A stretch of 64,000 nt of DNA from an uncultured Thiothrix sp. (GCA_964293005.1 CAXYXW010000020.1:3766-67765); one strand, 5' to 3'. Shown: positions 19,882 through 39,180, counted from the stretch's first letter. The notes: generated by a model from the letters alone, not told the origin. Translations and numbers: made by a program.

Positions 19882-22260
19882 ATGAGCACACAAAATTATA
19901 CCAAGCTGAAATTATTACAAGCACTCGACGGCGCATTGCTGGTGGTGATGTTGTTGACGTTTGCAACACTGACATGGCTGAGCTTGAGTGATCTTTCAGC
20001 AAAAGCCCAGCATAACCTGTTGGAGTCGACTGCCGTGCTGGAGCAGGTGGAAAAAGACTTCATCGGGCAGCTCAGCAGGGAAGCGCATATTGATGAAAAC
20101 CGCAAAACCCTTGAGCAATTGAATGATGCTTTTTTCAAGCTGGCCTTTGATCCGGGCAGCATTGAGGAGAGCTTGCCACACCTGCGGACATTGGGTGAAA
20201 CATTCGATGCCCAGCGCCAAGTGTTGTTGCAGGAATGGCCGGGTAATTTCAGACCCTTGCTGCGTGACTCTTATGAGCTTGTCAGCGATAAGCTGGTTGC
20301 AAGCCTTGTGCAAAGCCAAACCTTAGCTTCGGATCAATGGACGGTATTTGCGGCGGATATTCGTACCCAGTTGTTGGCAACCCGTGAAGTGGTGGAGGAA
20401 ATCGACAGTATTGGTAATAGCCTCGGCGTATTGGTGAGTGACAGTATCCAGCTTTCGATCAATAGTGCCAACCGCAGTGTGGGGCAAATGAAAAGCCAGA
20501 TTGTGCAAATCCGCGAGAATGCGGTTTGGGCGATGCTGGGTTTGATGATCCTGCTGCTGTTGAGCCGGATTTATTTCTCCCACCGTTTCGGCATGCTGAC
20601 CCGCGATGCCCAGCAGGCACAGCAGCAGGCAGAAAATGCAGTCAAGACCAAGACCCGTTTCCTGGCGACCATGAGCCATGAAATCCGTACCCCGATGAAT
20701 GGGGTGATTGGTATGACCCGCTTACTGATGGATACCCCTTTGAACCAGCGGCAAGCTGATTTTGTCGAGAGTATCCGCCTGAGTGGTGAACATTTGTTGA
20801 CCGTGATTAATGATGTGCTGGATTTTTCACGGATTGAGGCAGGCAGGTTTGAACTCAAACAGGAGGCTTTTGAGCTGCGTTCCTGCGTTGAGGAAATCCT
20901 GAGCCTGCTGCATGCCAAGGCGGTGGAGAAAAACCTGGAGTTGACCTATGCAGTGCACACCGCCGTGCCACTCTTTATTGTCGGCGATCAGGTGCGTTTG
21001 CGGCAGATACTCACCAACCTGATTGGTAATGCCATCAAGTTTACGGAAAGTGGCGAAGTGACAGTATTCGTGAACCAGAAATCCGAGGCTAAATCAATGC
21101 GTGATCTGGTTGGCGTATCAGTTCATGAGCTGGAGTTTGAGATCCGTGATACCGGCCCTGGTATCCGTGCCAGCCGTTTGGGTAGTATTTTTGAGCAATT
21201 CAGCCGTGCCGATGAAACCTTGGTCAGGCAGCACGAAGGTACTGGGTTGGGCTTGAGCATTTCCCGCCATTTGGTGGGAATGATGGGCGGGTCTATCTGG
21301 GTGGAAAGCCGGGTTGGGGTTGGCAGCCGCTTTTTCTTTACCCTACAGGCACGGCAAGGAACAGGCGCATTGCAGGCTATCCATCAGGCCTCTATTCCCG
21401 CCATCAGTGGCAAACGCATCCTGGTTATTGAAAACAATCCTGCCAATAGCCAGGCCTTGCGTGATTATTGCTTGGGTTGGGGGGCAGAGGTTGAGCTTGC
21501 CAGTTCGGTTGCGGAAGCGGTCAGTTGGTTGGCATCCGGCAAAACGTATGGGTTAGCCTTGCTGGATGGGCATGTGGCAGAAACCGCTGCCATGGATTTT
21601 GCCCAGTATGTGCGCCAGCGTTCCCAACAGAAAGCATTGCCGCTGGTGCTGATGATCCAGCCCAATGATCGGCAGGAGGCGGTGCATGTCCTGTATAATG
21701 CCCTCCTGACCAAGCCGATGACCCGCAGCCGCTTGCTGGACAGTTTGCTGGCAGCTCTGGGTGGGCAAGCCGCCCTGCCTGAGTCGAAGGTGGTTGTGGA
21801 GGGCCAGAAATTAGGGGAGAGTTTGCCGCTGAGTGTTTTGCTGGTGGAGGATAACCGCATTAACCAGATCGTTGCCACGGCTATCCTCAAGCAGTTGGGC
21901 TATCAGGCTGACCTGGCGGAAAATGGCTTGGTCGCGGTCGCTGCCATGCACAAGAAAGCTTACGATGTTGTCTTTATGGATATGCAAATGCCAGAAATGG
22001 ATGGCGTGCAGGCCACCCGCTGTATCCGTGCCGAATTGCCGCCTGAGCGCCAGCCGGTAATTATTGCCATGACAGCGAATGCCCTAGAAAGTGACCGGCA
22101 GGAGTGTGTGGCAGCAGGCATGAATGATTACACCAGCAAGCCGGTTTTGCCGGAAACGGTTAAAGCCCTGCTGGAAAAGTGGGGGGCGGGTAGGGTTGCC
22201 CATACCCGTACAGCCCCGTCTGGCTCAGGTTTGCCTAACGCTTACCTGCCTGTTGCGTAA
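19882..22260 (+). CDS. Hybrid sensor histidine kinase / response regulator (periplasmic sensor, HisKA, HATPase_c, two receiver domains)
   Basis: Two TM helices flank a ~170 aa extracytoplasmic domain. H-box MSHEIRTPMNGVIGM, N/G boxes, then a degenerate REC (VIENN...LLDGH...LTKP) and a canonical REC (LLVEDNRINQ...VFMDMQMPEMDG...YTSKP). Confidence 0.85.
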   Translation: MSTQNYTKLKLLQALDGALLVVMLLTFATLTWLSLSDLSAKAQHNLLESTAVLEQVEKDFIGQLSREAHIDENRKTLEQLNDAFFKLAFDPGSIEESLPHLRTLGETFDAQRQVLLQEWPGNFRPLLRDSYELVSDKLVASLVQSQTLASDQWTVFAADIRTQLLATREVVEEIDSIGNSLGVLVSDSIQLSINSANRSVGQMKSQIVQIRENAVWAMLGLMILLLLSRIYFSHRFGMLTRDAQQAQQQAENAVKTKTRFLATMSHEIRTPMNGVIGMTRLLMDTPLNQRQADFVESIRLSGEHLLTVINDVLDFSRIEAGRFELKQEAFELRSCVEEILSLLHAKAVEKNLELTYAVHTAVPLFIVGDQVRLRQILTNLIGNAIKFTESGEVTVFVNQKSEAKSMRDLVGVSVHELEFEIRDTGPGIRASRLGSIFEQFSRADETLVRQHEGTGLGLSISRHLVGMMGGSIWVESRVGVGSRFFFTLQARQGTGALQAIHQASIPAISGKRILVIENNPANSQALRDYCLGWGAEVELASSVAEAVSWLASGKTYGLALLDGHVAETAAMDFAQYVRQRSQQKALPLVLMIQPNDRQEAVHVLYNALLTKPMTRSRLLDSLLAALGGQAALPESKVVVEGQKLGESLPLSVLLVEDNRINQIVATAILKQLGYQADLAENGLVAVAAMHKKAYDVVFMDMQMPEMDGVQATRCIRAELPPERQPVIIAMTANALESDRQECVAAGMNDYTSKPVLPETVKALLEKWGAGRVAHTRTAPSGSGLPNAYLPVA

Positions 22261-28138: not shown

Positions 28139-28831
28139 TTAAACTTCTTGCATGATCCGCACCACCCGCGCATCCAGACACGAGCGCAGGAAGGCATTCA
28201 TCGCGGTTTCATCGCCCGACGTATAAAACGCCAGCATCAAGGTGTTGAATTCCAGTTGGCGTTTGGCGGGCAGGTTGATGGCGGGGTAGCCATGCTGGAG
28301 CAAATGCCCATTCATCATGAAACGCCCCATGCGCTTGTTCACGTCGTAGAAAAACTGGCAACGTGCCATCGTCAGAAACAGATGGATGGCTTGGTCGTAA
28401 ATGTCGTCGATGTGGGCAAGGTCGGCAACCATTGCCTGGAAACGGGCAGGCAATTCGGCAACCGGCGGTGGCATATAATCCGTTCCGGCGATGAGTACGC
28501 CACCTGTGCGGAAACAGCCCCATTCCAGTGCTTCCTCTTTGCCTGCGACGGCGTGGAGTGCGCAGGCTGTTGCGGCGGAAACGCTGAATTCACCGCGCTC
28601 AAGCCAGCCAAACAATAACCGCCATGCGTTGCCTTGATTGACCGTGATTTGCTGGTCGGACAGTTTGTGTCCACCGACGGTGATGCCATCCAGCAGGGTT
28701 TGGACTTCCGGCAGGGTCATGTTGATGCCTTCCAGATTGACGGCATCGCAAACGAATTCGCTGAGTTGGCGTTTTGCCAGCATCAGGGCTTTGGCGGGGT
28801 TGGGGGGGATTTGCCAGTGGGTGTCTTGCAT
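28139..28831 (-). CDS. Fic/Doc-fold protein with a degenerate active-site motif
   Basis: QFFYDVNKRMGRFMMN aligns to the Fic motif HPFxDGNGRxxRLLxN. His->Gln and Gly->Val/Lys substitutions are seen directly. Confidence 0.6.
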   Translation of the reverse strand: MQDTHWQIPPNPAKALMLAKRQLSEFVCDAVNLEGINMTLPEVQTLLDGITVGGHKLSDQQITVNQGNAWRLLFGWLERGEFSVSAATACALHAVAGKEEALEWGCFRTGGVLIAGTDYMPPPVAELPARFQAMVADLAHIDDIYDQAIHLFLTMARCQFFYDVNKRMGRFMMNGHLLQHGYPAINLPAKRQLEFNTLMLAFYTSGDETAMNAFLRSCLDARVVRIMQEV

Positions 28832-28897: not shown

Positions 28898-29407
28898 TTA
28901 CTTCATCCGCGCTCTTGCTACATCTTTCCAAAGTCTTGCACCTCTTGGTGCATGGGCATCTACACAAACTGAGGGAAAGTCCATAACTTCGCTCCGAACC
29001 TCCCCCCTCCCCAACCCTCCCCCCGCAAGGGGTGGAGGGGGCAAGAGGTGTTGGGATTGTTGGTGCAAGGCGTGACGAATTTGTTGTAAAACGGCTTCCT
29101 GATTGTTCAGGAGTTCATCATTCCAGAAACGCAGCAGTCTGAATTGTTGTTGCTGCATCCAGTTGTCGCGCTCACGGTCATACGCTTGTTGGTGGCGGTG
29201 TGGGTTGCCGTCCAGCTCAATTACCAACCGCGCATCCAGACAAACAAAATCAACGATATAGCGCCCCAATGGGGCTTGATGGCGGAAACGGTAGCCATCC
29301 AATTGGCGTTTCCTCAACAGCGCCCATAACGTCTGCTCTGGTATTGTCATGTTCTTACGCAGATTGCGGGCAAGGTCACGGTGAGTTTTGTTGTATTGCC
29401 TTTCCAT
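28898..29407 (-). CDS. DUF559 (Vsr-like very-short-patch-repair endonuclease fold) protein
   Basis: MERQYNKTHRDLARNLRKNMTIPEQTLWALLRKRQLDGYRFRHQAPLGRYIVDFVCLDARLVIELDG is typical DUF559. The C-terminal tail is encoded by read-through into the left inverted repeat. Confidence 0.65.
   Translation of the reverse strand: MERQYNKTHRDLARNLRKNMTIPEQTLWALLRKRQLDGYRFRHQAPLGRYIVDFVCLDARLVIELDGNPHRHQQAYDRERDNWMQQQQFRLLRFWNDELLNNQEAVLQQIRHALHQQSQHLLPPPPLAGGGLGRGEVRSEVMDFPSVCVDAHAPRGARLWKDVARARMK
28958..29045. repeat. Left arm of the inverted repeat
   Basis: See the mobile_element entry. Confidence 0.8.
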
Positions 29408-29463
29408 CGTTCGAGTGTCGGGGATACCATCCAACCCCGCAACAAATGCCGATAACCAGAACA

Positions 29464-29552
29464 TCTTACCCCCTCCACCCCTTGCGGGGGGAGGGTTGGG
29501 GAGGGGGGAGGTTCGGAGCGAAGTTATGGATTTTCTCTCAGTTTGTGTAGAT
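29464..29552. repeat. Right arm of the inverted repeat
   Basis: See the mobile_element entry. Confidence 0.8.
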
Positions 29553-29604
29553 ACTCATGCCGTTTGATGGCAGATTTCATGTAAGATATTGAAAGGGTAA
29601 ACAC

Positions 29605-29982
29605 ATGAGCAACCGCATCCTAACCATCAAAGTCGGTACAAGTATCCAGCCCTCGCTGGCACTCGCCCAGCAGATGCTGGAACAGCTAGAAACCGGCGAA
29701 GAGCCTACCCCCTATTTCGGCGTAGGCTTCAAAAATGTCAGCCAGATGCTCGGTGTTTTCACGCCCAAACGCTGGGATTTGTTGGCAACCTTACGCGAAC
29801 ATGGCGCGATGAGTGTTGCCGAACTCGCCCGCACCCTGCAACGCGACTACAAAAACGTCCACAACGACGTGGAGCGCCTGATGGAATGGCTGGCTATCGA
29901 GCGCGATGCACAGGGCAGGGTGTTTACGCCCTACGCGGAAATTGTGGTGGATGTGCATTTGCCGCAACAAAAAGCGGCGTAG
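29605..29982 (+). CDS. Small winged-helix/HTH DNA-binding protein
   Basis: About 125 aa. HTH-like segment MSVAELARTLQRDYKNVHNDVERL. Confidence 0.45.
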   Translation: MSNRILTIKVGTSIQPSLALAQQMLEQLETGEEPTPYFGVGFKNVSQMLGVFTPKRWDLLATLREHGAMSVAELARTLQRDYKNVHNDVERLMEWLAIERDAQGRVFTPYAEIVVDVHLPQQKAA

Positions 29983-36576: not shown

Positions 36577-37185
36577 ATGGCAATTAACCACCCCATTTCC
36601 CGTCGTCAATGGTTGCAGTATAGCGCAGCCGGTACACTGGGTTTACTGTTGCCTGTTTTTCCGATCCAGGCGGGGGCGCTGGATACCGGGGCAATCCTGC
36701 GCCTGCATCCGGTGCGTTATATCGGCGGTTTGATTTTCAATACCGTCGTGGCGGTTATCACCAAATTGGCGGAGGAGGAAATGGTGCAGGCGCTGCAAAC
36801 CGGCAAGCCCTTACCACCCTACCAGCGGCAAACCCGTTGCCAAGTGGCTTGTGATGACAGCCAGTTCCACCCTCCGCATTATAAGGCAGCGGTGGTTTTG
36901 TCAGGTTTGGCGGGTTATCAGGCTCACCGCCAGCGCCGTCTGGAGCTGCTGCTGCAAGACCCGGCACAGGTGGCACGTTTCAAGGATATGCTGCAATACC
37001 TGCGGGATGAGCGCCTGCGGGTGCGCCTGGTCGGGATGGAATACCCGCAATTGGTGGGCAAGGACATGATCCCGGATGATTTTTTCACTTTGGATCACTA
37101 CGGGTTGACCCCACACAAGGCCGAGCATGTGCAGGCCTTGGTGGAGCTGACGGGGACAGGGGCTTTTACGGATTGGAGCGTGTGA
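36577..37185 (+). CDS. Tat-signal hypothetical protein
   Basis: Twin-arginine motif SRRQWLQYSAAGTLGLLL. Its stop overlaps the start of the next gene (TGATG). Confidence 0.45.
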   Translation: MAINHPISRRQWLQYSAAGTLGLLLPVFPIQAGALDTGAILRLHPVRYIGGLIFNTVVAVITKLAEEEMVQALQTGKPLPPYQRQTRCQVACDDSQFHPPHYKAAVVLSGLAGYQAHRQRRLELLLQDPAQVARFKDMLQYLRDERLRVRLVGMEYPQLVGKDMIPDDFFTLDHYGLTPHKAEHVQALVELTGTGAFTDWSV

Positions 37186-39056
37186 TGCGGTTGTGGGTAG
37201 GGGTGATGGTGTGGTGCTTGGCAAGCACTGTGCAGGCGGATACCTTGACGCGGCGTGAGGTGCAGATCATGCACGATGCAGGTATCCGCATGGCCTTGAT
37301 GCGGGCGGATGGCACGAGTGAAAAGCCGTATGTGATCCCGGTGGAGATCAGGCCAGAGGTGTTGTTGCAAACCGAGTTACTGGATTTCTCCGGGCAACCG
37401 TTGAGCCAAGTGCCGGGTTGGTTGGTGAAGTTCAAAAACCTGCGCAAGCTGGATTTGTCCAATACCGGCCTGCGGGTGGATGGCAACCTGTTGGCAGCGT
37501 TGGGGAATATGCCGGAATTGAGTGTGCTGAACCTGTCCGGCAACCCCTTGTTCCCGGAGAATGACTGCCTGTTCTTTTGTGATCCGGTGGTGACATTGAA
37601 CGGCGTTTGGCAGAAGCTGACGCAACTCACCGAGCTGCGTTTGACCAATACGGGCGCAACGGCTGAGAACCTGGGCAGCTTTGCCCCTTTGGAAAACCTC
37701 ACCCATTTGTATCTGGGCGGCAATCGAATTGGCGATGGGATAACCAAGCTGGGCTTGGCGAACCCCTCCAACCTGAAGAAGCTCAATTTGGATAATAATG
37801 GCATCAGCCAAGACCCCTTGCCGGATTTGCCCACCCAAAGCCTCGTGGAGTTGAGTCTTGCCGAGAATGACCTGCGGGAACTGGCGTTTGTGGATATGCC
37901 GAATCTGGAGCAGTGGGATGTGAGCCGTAATCCCAACCTGAAACTGGCAACGGGGTTTGGGGATATGTTTGCTTTGGGGGCGTTGCAGGTGTTGGGGTAT
38001 GACCAACCGTACCACTTGCCCGCCCCACTGCTGAAGCGGATGCAGGCTAAGATGGAGCAGGCAAAGGCAGCGATAGCAAAGGCTGAACAGCTTGAACAGG
38101 AGCGCAAGAAAGCAGCGTTGCACGCTGAACAGGAACGGCAAGCAGCCATAGCAAAGGCTGAAGAGGAGCGTAAGAAAGCGGCAGAGCAAGCTGAACAGGA
38201 ACGGCAAGCAGCAGCCCGCCGTCAAGCGGAAGAGAAAGAAAGGGCAGCGATAGTAAAGGCTGAGCAGCTTGAGCAGGAACGCAAGAAAGCGGCGGCAAAA
38301 GCAGCCACCCGCCAGCCTTTCGAGCCGGAGATGGTATCAATCCCCGCTGGGAAATTCACGATGGGTTGTGACGGCAAGCGCGATGATGTGGAAGGCGGTT
38401 GTTTTGACAATGAAAAACCTGCCCACACAGTTACCCTCAATGCATTCGAAATGGGCAAATATGAGGTGACGTTTGATGAATGGGATGCCTGCGAACAGGC
38501 AAATGTCTGCCCCCATGCGGATGATTACGGTTGGGGTCGTGGCAAGCGCCCGGTGATCAATGTCAGTTGGAATGATATTACCCAAAAGTACCTCCCGTGG
38601 TTGAACCGGGAAACGGGTAAGCTCTACCGTTTACCGACCGAAGCGGAATGGGAGTATGCAGCGCGGGGTGGTCAGGGTGGGGCGTATCCTTGGGGGCAAG
38701 AGGCCAGCCATGAATATGCCAACTATGGTAAGGATACATGTTGCGGTGGTTTGGCTTCTGGCAAAGACCAGTGGGAGTACACTGCCCCTGTTGGCAGTTT
38801 TGCTGTAAATGGTTATGGCCTGCACGATATGCACGGCAACGTGTGGGAGTGGGTGGAAGATTGTTGGCAGGGTGATTACAAAGATGCCCCGGTGGATGGT
38901 AGCGCCCGTCAGGGTTGCGGCGCGGATGCGTCGCGTGTGTTGCGCGGCGGGTCGTGGTACGGCACTCCTCTGTGGTTGCGTTCCGCCTACCGCGACTACT
39001 ACACGCCCACGTACCGTACCTCCGGTGTGGGTTTTCGTGCTGCCAGGACTAATTGA
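37185..39056 (+). CDS. Secreted LRR / coiled-coil / formylglycine-generating-enzyme (FGE-sulfatase) domain fusion protein
   Basis: Signal peptide. LRRs (LRKLDLSNTGL, LSVLNLSGNPL, LTHLYLGGNRI, LKKLNLDNNGI). Repetitive KAEQLEQERKKAA coiled coil. C-terminal FGE domain (PAGKFTMG...YRLPTEAEWEYAARGG...LHDMHGNVWEWVEDCW...RVLRGGSWY). Confidence 0.7.
   Translation: MRLWVGVMVWCLASTVQADTLTRREVQIMHDAGIRMALMRADGTSEKPYVIPVEIRPEVLLQTELLDFSGQPLSQVPGWLVKFKNLRKLDLSNTGLRVDGNLLAALGNMPELSVLNLSGNPLFPENDCLFFCDPVVTLNGVWQKLTQLTELRLTNTGATAENLGSFAPLENLTHLYLGGNRIGDGITKLGLANPSNLKKLNLDNNGISQDPLPDLPTQSLVELSLAENDLRELAFVDMPNLEQWDVSRNPNLKLATGFGDMFALGALQVLGYDQPYHLPAPLLKRMQAKMEQAKAAIAKAEQLEQERKKAALHAEQERQAAIAKAEEERKKAAEQAEQERQAAARRQAEEKERAAIVKAEQLEQERKKAAAKAATRQPFEPEMVSIPAGKFTMGCDGKRDDVEGGCFDNEKPAHTVTLNAFEMGKYEVTFDEWDACEQANVCPHADDYGWGRGKRPVINVSWNDITQKYLPWLNRETGKLYRLPTEAEWEYAARGGQGGAYPWGQEASHEYANYGKDTCCGGLASGKDQWEYTAPVGSFAVNGYGLHDMHGNVWEWVEDCWQGDYKDAPVDGSARQGCGADASRVLRGGSWYGTPLWLRSAYRDYYTPTYRTSGVGFRAARTN
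38061..38306 (+). repeat. Imperfect tandem repeats (~60-70 nt units) encoding the coiled-coil linker
   Basis: Repeated ...gcgatagcaaaggctgaacagcttgaacaggagcgcaagaaagc... units. Confidence 0.5.
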
Positions 39057-39180
39057 CCTTTTCCCTTTACCGTCAGTGCCACCCAAACCAAGGCTTTAGG
39101 TAGGCTTTACCGGGTGGGCGGGCGGTGGGGCGGCCTTCATACCGCGCTTGGCGCGGTCGATTTTTGGGTGGGCGGGCTTT

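Follow-up and report, generated by a model that had tools for sequence, protein, structure and literature searches.

A small mobile cassette of Thiothrix carries a predicted Vsr-like DUF559 nuclease gene between BoxC/PIT/TM-like inverted repeats

Within a 64,000-nt stretch of DNA from an uncultured Thiothrix sp. (GCA_964293005.1 CAXYXW010000020.1:3766-67765; the whole stretch is hereafter called the window, and positions are counted from its first letter), we found that the gene of a small DUF559 protein, a predicted Vsr-like nuclease, is enclosed between two long inverted repeats resembling those of the BoxC/PIT/TM class, and that gene and repeats together form a mobile cassette. DUF559 is a very large family of "unknown function." The unit, i.e., both arms, a 48-nt leader, and the gene, is present at unrelated chromosomal sites in different Thiothrix species; it moves or has moved, and it leaves gene-less derivatives behind. 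The association of DUF559 with inverted repeats also holds across distant bacteria. We searched the literature on DUF559, PF04480, COG2852, repetitive extragenic palindromic (REP) repeats with Vsr, and intrastrand triplexes and found no paper linking DUF559 to BoxC/PIT/TM or REP-like repeats, and the link to BoxC/PIT/TM is apparently unreported. We give about an even chance to the reading that this is a selfish mobile cassette whose Vsr-family nuclease acts on its own BoxC/PIT-type arms.

By direct count, the inverted repeat joins 28950-29054 to 29456-29560 (105 nt per arm, 92% complementary, 8 mismatches) across 401 nt, and its inner 88-nt stretch (28958-29045 vs. 29464-29552) contains 3 mismatches, within the three to four that a first-pass annotation of the window had claimed. 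That annotation had also guessed that the repeat extends a few bases farther on each side; it in fact reaches slightly past the guess, to a CATG at both ends (28951 and 29559). The 64-kb window contains exactly two occurrences of the 43-nt GC-rich core of the arm, and 100 shuffles contained none. The palindromic core noted at first pass is real; its membership in the BoxC/PIT/TM class had gone unrecognized. The sole gene within the 609-bp cassette is that of the small Vsr-like (DUF559) nuclease. The parts of the cassette are as follows.

28951..29559, minus (gene strand): whole cassette, 609 bp, with CATG(G/A)G...C(T/C)CATG termini, equal to the extent of the inverted repeat
28950..29054, plus: left arm (3' arm relative to the gene), with an outer family-specific part (~28951-28998), a BoxC/TM-type core (28999-29041), and an inner CAAGAGGTG (29042-29054)
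29456..29560, minus: right arm (5' arm relative to the gene), reverse complement of the left arm
28999..29041, minus: triplex-motif core of the left arm, pyrimidine-purine-purine (Y-R-R) on the minus strand, composed of CCCCCTCCACCCC, loop TTGC, GGGGGGAGGG, TT, and mirror GGGGAGGGGGG
29469..29511, plus: triplex-motif core of the right arm, Y-R-R order on the plus strand, sequence read directly
28898..29407, minus: DUF559 (Vsr-like PD-(D/E)XK) coding sequence (CDS), 169 aa from the MERQ start, with the domain coded by 29066-29383
29408..29455, minus: leader from the 5' arm to the start codon, 48 nt, fixed in length in five Thiothrix cassettes

The open reading frame (ORF) between the arms (28898-29464, minus strand) matched Pfam DUF559 (PF04480) with an E value of 4.4e-40 over profile positions 3-108 of 109, in agreement with the first-pass assignment, and no other Pfam family except the related MTES_1575; it also matched the NCBIfam YcjD model (E 5e-32) and PDB 3HRL (E 2.7e-23). 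All homologues begin with MER or MEK, equivalent to window position 29407, and none has the N-terminal extension from the ATG at 29464, which we therefore regard as an artefact of ORF calling and not, as first annotated, as a protein part starting inside the right repeat. The C-terminal tail (PPPPLAGGGLGRGEV...) is indeed translated left arm. The 3' end of the window ORF is unusually long, its last ~50 codons crossing the left arm and 53 nt past it, to 28898, unlike in the homologues, where the stop lies 18-24 codons into the arm. A "P.P..G.G" tail, i.e., translated hairpin, was present in 65 of the 118 top protein homologues, and the exact window protein is also recorded from a Thiothrix metagenome-assembled genome (GCA_964397075.1). 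Phage records held almost no close homologue, with 1 match.

Numbered from MERQ, the residues D53, E64, D66, G67, H70, D77, and R80 of the conserved acidic/His core (D..F, E.DG..H, D..R) were invariant in 45 homologues. In the AlphaFold2 model (pLDDT 80.6), the arm-encoded tail is disordered, and the core, which has the restriction-endonuclease-like fold, resembles PDB 3HRL with a template-modeling (TM) score of 0.90, the catalytic domain of the homing endonuclease I-Bth0305I (PDB 3R3P) with a Foldseek TM score of ~0.8 (E 1e-4), and E. coli Vsr weakly, with a TM score of 0.48. The ratio of nonsynonymous to synonymous divergence (dN/dS) among the DUF559 genes of Thiothrix cassettes was 0.05-0.13, at dS of 0.8-2.3. 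Such purifying selection argues for a functional protein, whose nuclease activity is predicted from its sequence.

The nearest homologues are likewise flanked by homologous inverted repeats. In Thiothrix unzii (78% identity; our locus L003; arms of 77 nt, 96% complementary), the cassette lies between hsdS and hsdM of a type I restriction-modification operon, and in Candidatus (Ca.) T. anitrata (72% identity; L004), it lies inside a BREX locus. Ca. T. singaporensis (L019), Thiothrix sp. STA_22 (L025), and Ca. T. namsaraevi (L029) also carry cassettes, and the neighbours differed at every cassette locus compared. The distance from core to core was exactly 428 nt in the four cassettes in which both cores were detected (window, L003, L004, and L025), and each of the five Thiothrix cassettes examined for it has a leader of exactly 48 nt, with a sequence only 55-85% conserved. 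The outer part of the left arm is common to the cassettes L003, L025, and L022 (see below) and to one solo repeat (L109); its core recurs in about 125 copies in Thiothrix-like genomes. Extra solo or doublet arms were seen within a few kilobases of the cassettes of both T. unzii (L003 2864-2943, between hsdR and the gene that follows it) and Ca. T. anitrata (L004 9063-9186), which suggests that the repeats cluster locally in defence loci. The 3' arm of the Ca. T. anitrata cassette also holds a 27-nt insertion (L004 5389-5415; GGCGAAGCGCCGCGTTCAAGCGGCTGG...) that is translated into the protein tail, and a similar insert is present in L045.

Direct evidence of presence and absence came from Thiothrix fructosivorans, where a 284-bp internally deleted copy (L022), with both full arms and termini CATGAGT...ACTCATG, follows a Lactamase_B_2 gene immediately past its stop codon. 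At the orthologous site in Ca. T. moscowensis (L116/L117) there are 17 unrelated nucleotides and no repeat, and homology between the two ends exactly at the repeat termini. Since the latter site is free of repeats, the arms there came, or went, together with the interior. Two further T. fructosivorans loci show decay: an in-frame internal deletion of the cassette (L102), and a cassette (L042 1371-2533) interrupted just after its 5' arm and leader by an IS3-family insertion sequence (IS; orfA/orfB), from which the DUF559 gene is gone. As a separate observation, the Ca. T. namsaraevi cassette, which has extra nested repeat units (L029 1008-1268), stands right after the orthologue of the window gene at 37173-39056; comparing the two (window 38826-39086 and 39078-39100), homology stops at CAGTGCCACC (~39085), and the window has no repeat there. 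The far side is not homologous, and the comparison amounts to half an empty-site comparison.

Between species, the 65-nt core of the arm is 81-95% identical, compared with 84-90% at codon positions 1 and 2 and 56-73% at position 3 of the gene in the same Thiothrix cassettes, and the two arms of a single element are 88-98% identical to each other. These values show that both arms and protein are under selection, with the reservation for the arms that is given below.

The arms are also copies of a repeat that is dispersed well beyond the cassettes. A scan with a 19-nt core, taking one genome per species, gave 110 stretches, of which Thiothrix and its close relatives contributed about 75, and DUF559 was present in a handful only; for the source genome, the scan covered the 64-kb window. 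The common unit of about 55 nt consists of (CACTCC)GAAC, a C-run tail, the hairpin CCCTTC-CCCC-GCAA-GGGG-T-GAAGGG, and then GG-CAAGA, and on its G-rich strand each unit carries a pyrimidine block, a complementary purine block, and a mirror purine block. We counted 127 cores in 618 kb of Thiothrix-like blocks, and exact-core copies numbered at least 15 in T. fructosivorans and at least 12 in Thiothrix caldifontis. All 29 short doublets (29/29) were inverted in "+-" order, "tails-out" like the cassette, with mutually unrelated spacers; many combined two subtypes, a "ATCCCCAG..TTC" unit and a "CTCCCTAA..CTC" unit. The "+-" pairs at exactly 428 nt were cassettes. In the sampled blocks, inverted repeat pairs up to 2.5 kb apart enclosed nothing but DUF559 cassettes, remnants of these, and copies inside host genes; no other gene was bracketed.

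Repeats of the BoxC/PIT/TM class have been on record since the early 1990s (Bergler 1992 and Hoyne 2000, cited in PMC4666352), their origin and mode of spreading unexplained. According to Holder et al. 2015 (PMC4666352), TM repeats form triplexes in vitro, E. coli K-12 has 23 TMECO copies including five inverted pairs, always of type A with type B, and TM loci mark unstable sites, being hotspots of recombination and instability; no transposase or integrase, and no associated gene or mobility function, was found near them. Sequence comparison places the window arms in this class by architecture, and not in the E. coli TMECO family by sequence. The window arm (CCCCCTCCACCCC-TTGC-GGGGGGAGGG-TT-GGGGAGGGGGG) fits the three-block TMECO layout (PMC4666352), and the repeats in Thiothrix, too, are GC-rich, occur in many dispersed copies, and form close inverted pairs of two subtypes. 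In contrast, the BoxC/TMECO consensus, CCCTCNCCC N3-6 GGGNGAGGG N3 GGGNGAGGG, is not matched by the Thiothrix CCCTTC/GAAGGG; the Thiothrix repeats act as terminal inverted repeats of a gene cassette, with ~50 extra outer nucleotides; and some Thiothrix copies lie in frame inside genes, whereas the E. coli copies of BoxC are reported to be intergenic only.

Such in-frame copies were observed as doublets, both in the pyruvate dehydrogenase E2 and E3 linkers ("SPSPLAGEGLGMGG"; L066 2328-2424 and 3632-3716) and in a gene for an HlyD-family protein (L065 ~2471-2497). The purine strand of the arm (29486-29511, plus; 28999-29024, minus) also contains four G-runs, GGGGGG-A-GGG-TT-GGGG-A-GGGGGG, which make it a strong G-quadruplex candidate besides a triplex mirror repeat. 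A generic Y-R-R motif detector gave further matches in the window at 21261 and 44383, which we rejected as false positives, both strands having been called at palindromes.

To compare DUF559 loci outside Thiothrix, 80 metagenomic loci with proteins 38-57% identical to the query were collected, and the 58 with at least 300 nt on both sides were scored for the best inverted repeat joining the two flanks, using as controls 190 equally sized intervals shifted along the same contigs. The median score was 24 for the DUF559 loci and 9.5 for the controls, and 64% of the DUF559 loci reached a score of at least 20, compared with 1% of the controls (Mann-Whitney p 1.8e-22). The metagenomic arms were 33-111 nt long and all of the hairpin-plus-purine-tail kind, with lineage-specific sequences, and the units, with a median length of 453 bp, were of both the "tails-out" and the "tails-in" type. 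One metagenomic locus carries five tandem copies of upstream arm plus leader, with a period of 157 nt, before its DUF559 gene (L184 3254-4181), and a tails-in doublet at 2010-2102.

These two orientations bear on whether the arms merely serve the gene in cis, either by terminating or insulating transcription or by pairing into a long 5'-3' RNA stem, so that a potentially toxic nuclease stays untranslated in the manner of type I toxin mRNAs. We consider this improbable. Several features would suit it: in most homologues the reading frame reaches up to or into the 3' arm, the leader is fixed at 48 nt, many solo repeats stand directly after stop codons, in terminator positions, and no promoter of its own was detected in the cassette, the scan for promoters and terminators finding nothing inside and no sigma-70 consensus in the leader. 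However, units with tails in and with tails out are hard to fit to a single RNA mechanism, and the hairpin part of the arm, although predicted by folding, does not make single-arm folds any stabler than those of shuffled sequences with equal composition (z -0.9 and -1.0). As summarized in PMC4666352, Maher and co-workers found PIT elements to be without promoter or terminator activity, and action in cis would leave dispersal, empty sites, and intragenic copies unexplained. A search of Rfam, for its part, returned no family in the cassette region, just a chance match to mir-150 (E 0.36).

Cultured bacteria supplied further examples. The DUF559 locus of Deinococcus proteolyticus plasmid pDEIPR03 has a 56-nt inverted repeat (95%), that of NGO0050 in Neisseria gonorrhoeae, whose product is the protein of PDB 3HRL, shows a 29-nt inverted repeat (79%), and in Azospirillum a repeat doublet stands just upstream of the DUF559 gene. 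In E. coli, the DUF559 gene ycjD (L198 1459-2035, ~MG1655 1,351,204-1,351,760) has its stop inside a degenerate hairpin; on its 3' side come a second copy of part of its 3' end and, at 186 nt and before fabI, BoxC/TMECO no. 9 (numbering of Table 1 in PMC4666352). With 23 copies in 4.6 Mb, the chance of a BoxC this near ycjD is, as a rough estimate, ~0.5%. Counted at >=80% coverage, 3374 of the 5426 complete E. coli genomes have ycjD. Genomes lacking it (L199 and L206) were considered as a clean empty site and rejected, a major facilitator superfamily (MFS) efflux operon filling the sapF-fabI spacer.

Finding the same layout in many bacteria suggests that a DUF559 nuclease may be the partner of an orphan repeat family. 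Tentatively, and with less confidence than we have in the reading for Thiothrix itself, DUF559 cassettes may be the autonomous form of an unrecognized class of prokaryotic mobile element, whose sole protein, the Vsr-like nuclease, would recognize triplex- or hairpin-forming BoxC/PIT repeats. Its non-autonomous derivatives would then be the orphan BoxC/PIT/TM repeats present in E. coli, in cyanobacteria, in Thiothrix, and in several hundred further genomes. If the orphan repeats do derive from DUF559 cassettes, YcjD would be the missing BoxC enzyme of E. coli K-12.

The first-pass annotation had proposed a small selfish or mobile unit carrying an endonuclease gene, and the recurrence of cassettes at unrelated sites and the empty orthologous site in Ca. 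T. moscowensis (L116/L117) bear this out. The arm, far from occurring once in a conserved context, recurs many times in related genomes, and other DUF559 genes are flanked alike in Thiothrix relatives, at metagenomic loci, and in cultured examples. Two of its labels need changing: the cassette is not a strict miniature inverted-repeat transposable element (MITE), as it encodes a protein under strong purifying selection (the gene-less doublets and deleted copies are the MITE-like forms), and a "non-autonomous" character is not indicated.

As to how the cassette moves, we infer that the DUF559 nuclease would be the mobilizing enzyme of the repeats. In the mechanism that we think most likely, it would recognize the structured arms, as hairpin, triplex, or cruciform, and nick or cut at or near them, whereupon host replication or recombination would place copies at new sites, either of the whole unit between the arms or of arms alone, without target duplication. 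The nuclease would then play, with a PD-(D/E)XK enzyme, the role that the REP-associated tyrosine transposase (RAYT) plays for REP and REPIN sequences, or that a homing endonuclease plays for its own gene.

As the main alternative, the nuclease might be a passenger, an ordinary solitary Vsr-type repair or defence enzyme that takes no part in the movement and is carried between independent repeat doublets by RecA-dependent recombination or transformation, much like the "minimal mobile elements" of Neisseria, with the dispersed repeats as portable homology. The repeats far outnumber the cassettes, and gene-less doublets with cassette geometry exist; the cassettes lie in variable and defence regions, which often recombine; TM loci are hotspots of recombination and instability (PMC4666352); and VsrA of Caulobacter has a host-level, methylation-linked role (PMC12907096). 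All of this is as a passenger would have it. We nevertheless hold it to be rather unlikely, since the empty site in Ca. T. moscowensis is without any repeat, so that the arms arrived there with the interior; since ~50 nt of outer arm sequence are specific to cassettes and absent from generic solo repeats; and since DUF559 is the sole bracketed family in the sample, even in lineages whose repeats are quite different, a choice of family that a passenger model does not explain.

Several points weigh against a selfish cassette driven by its own nuclease, to which we now return. The link between the DUF559 protein and the repeats comes from comparing sequences, and the sole in vivo data on a DUF559 protein, those on Caulobacter VsrA, describe a methylation-linked, SOS-induced, Vsr-like enzyme (PMC12907096). 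The nuclease domain, of ~115 aa, has no evident strand-transfer chemistry and no separate DNA-binding domain. About one-third of the metagenomic DUF559 loci are without a clear flanking repeat, E. coli ycjD has repeats on one side only, and in the sampled blocks some repeat-rich genomes lack an intact cassette; T. caldifontis, with its at least 12 cores, has none there. The occupied and empty sites form one pair only, from species ~15% diverged, and at that divergence precise deletion is possible. Target-site duplications, which the first-pass annotation had suggested looking for, were not seen in the junctions read; by eye, there was none at the termini of the window cassette, L003, or L022, the flanks of the empty site being diverged. 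No conserved target was found among the cassette sites. Finally, gene conversion with the many genomic copies, rather than selection, could explain the conservation of the arms.

In the window, the cassette has inserted into the promoter region of two divergent genes, with a Fic-family gene on one side (28139-28831, minus strand), an HVO_A0114-type helix-turn-helix (HTH) gene on the other (29605-29982, plus strand), and birA and coaX farther out. The Fic gene has 87-93% conserved counterparts in other Thiothrix (L115-L117), in unrelated, defence-like neighbourhoods (helicase/YagJ; AAA_14/HNH_2), and gives weak PADLOC matches to PDC-S04 and SoFic; this gene, too, probably belongs to a mobile or variable island. 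Because the Fic orthologues (87-93% identical) sit in unrelated neighbourhoods, they yielded no empty-site comparison for the window's own locus. PADLOC defence models found no match in the cassette beyond a marginal one to DpdF (E 1.6e-4 over 50 residues).

With genes on either side, the 105-nt arms might mediate programmed inversion of the 401-bp interior and so flip the gene relative to outside promoters on the Fic side and the HTH side; the arms are long and similar enough to recombine, and in the enrichment table of Milman et al. (PMC9881135) DUF559 ranks with the CDS families that inverted repeats overlap most in excess (odds ratio 14), a 14-fold enrichment among predicted targets of programmed inversion. 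We find such a switch very hard to credit. The neighbour gene tables contain no invertase or recombinase gene adjacent to the cassette, the orientation is the same in two independent assemblies, and, the arms being symmetric, inversion would leave the cassette itself unchanged. The 14-fold enrichment is explained by the mere overlap of repeats and CDSs. The association described here accounts for the place of DUF559 among "predicted programmed inversions." It likewise explains the proline/glycine tails and the false N-terminal extensions in DUF559 annotations, and the in-frame repeat insertions in housekeeping genes are flagged.

DUF559 and BoxC/PIT/TM, two orphans, are thus joined in one compact, selected, mobile cassette across distant phyla, and there is a fair chance that the cassette, a repeat-plus-associated-nuclease system, represents a new class of mobile element. 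Set against known systems, it shares with MITEs its terminal inverted repeats (105 nt, 92%), small size, gene-less derivatives (L022, 284 bp; L102), and presence/absence polymorphism. It differs from MITEs and IS elements in having neither a DDE nor any other known transposase, in showing no target-site duplication, and in that the window copy is coding and selected. The Rickettsia palindromic elements, reportedly described by Ogata et al. in Science in 2000 as short palindromic repeats lying in frame inside protein-coding genes, resemble the Thiothrix repeats in their in-frame insertion (here in the pyruvate dehydrogenase E2/E3 linkers and the HlyD-family gene) and are unrelated in sequence; we know of no nuclease gene associated with them.

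Likeness to I-Bth0305I lies in the Vsr-like (EDxHD) catalytic fold, at a TM score of ~0.8, and in I-Bth0305I being a selfish nuclease gene spread through host repair. That enzyme, however, has an added DNA-binding region and resides in a phage group I intron, whereas the cassette lies in neither an intron nor an intein and is not tied to one conserved target gene. Vsr belongs to the same superfamily, and Caulobacter VsrA, which has a DUF559 domain, is genetically unlinked to its methyltransferase (PMC12907096). In contrast to Vsr, no C5-methyltransferase gene adjoins the cassette at three loci (the window, T. unzii, where the methylase is the N6 enzyme hsdM, and Ca. T. anitrata), and flanking repeats belong to no model of Vsr; an unlinked partner, such as that of VsrA, is possible.

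The comparison with REP/REPIN sequences and RAYT is of the same kind. In both systems, a nuclease gene lies between inverted copies of the genome's own dispersed palindromic repeat, the repeats occur as singlets and as inverted doublets, and few genes stand against many repeats. The enzymes differ, RAYT (TnpA-REP) being an HUH/Y1 protein of IS200/IS605-like type and the cassette enzyme a PD-(D/E)XK, Vsr-like one. So do the repeats: the aligned Thiothrix copies have no GTAG/CGTC tag, their units beginning with (CACTCC)GAAC and then a C-run, and, unlike in REPINs, the doublet spacers are mutually unrelated. Because they stand at non-orthologous sites, with multiple decaying copies per genome, the cassettes are also not single-copy, vertically inherited genes as RAYT genes are. 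If the DUF559 nuclease does drive the repeats, the cassette would represent a second partnership of the REP/RAYT kind, with an enzyme of unrelated fold.

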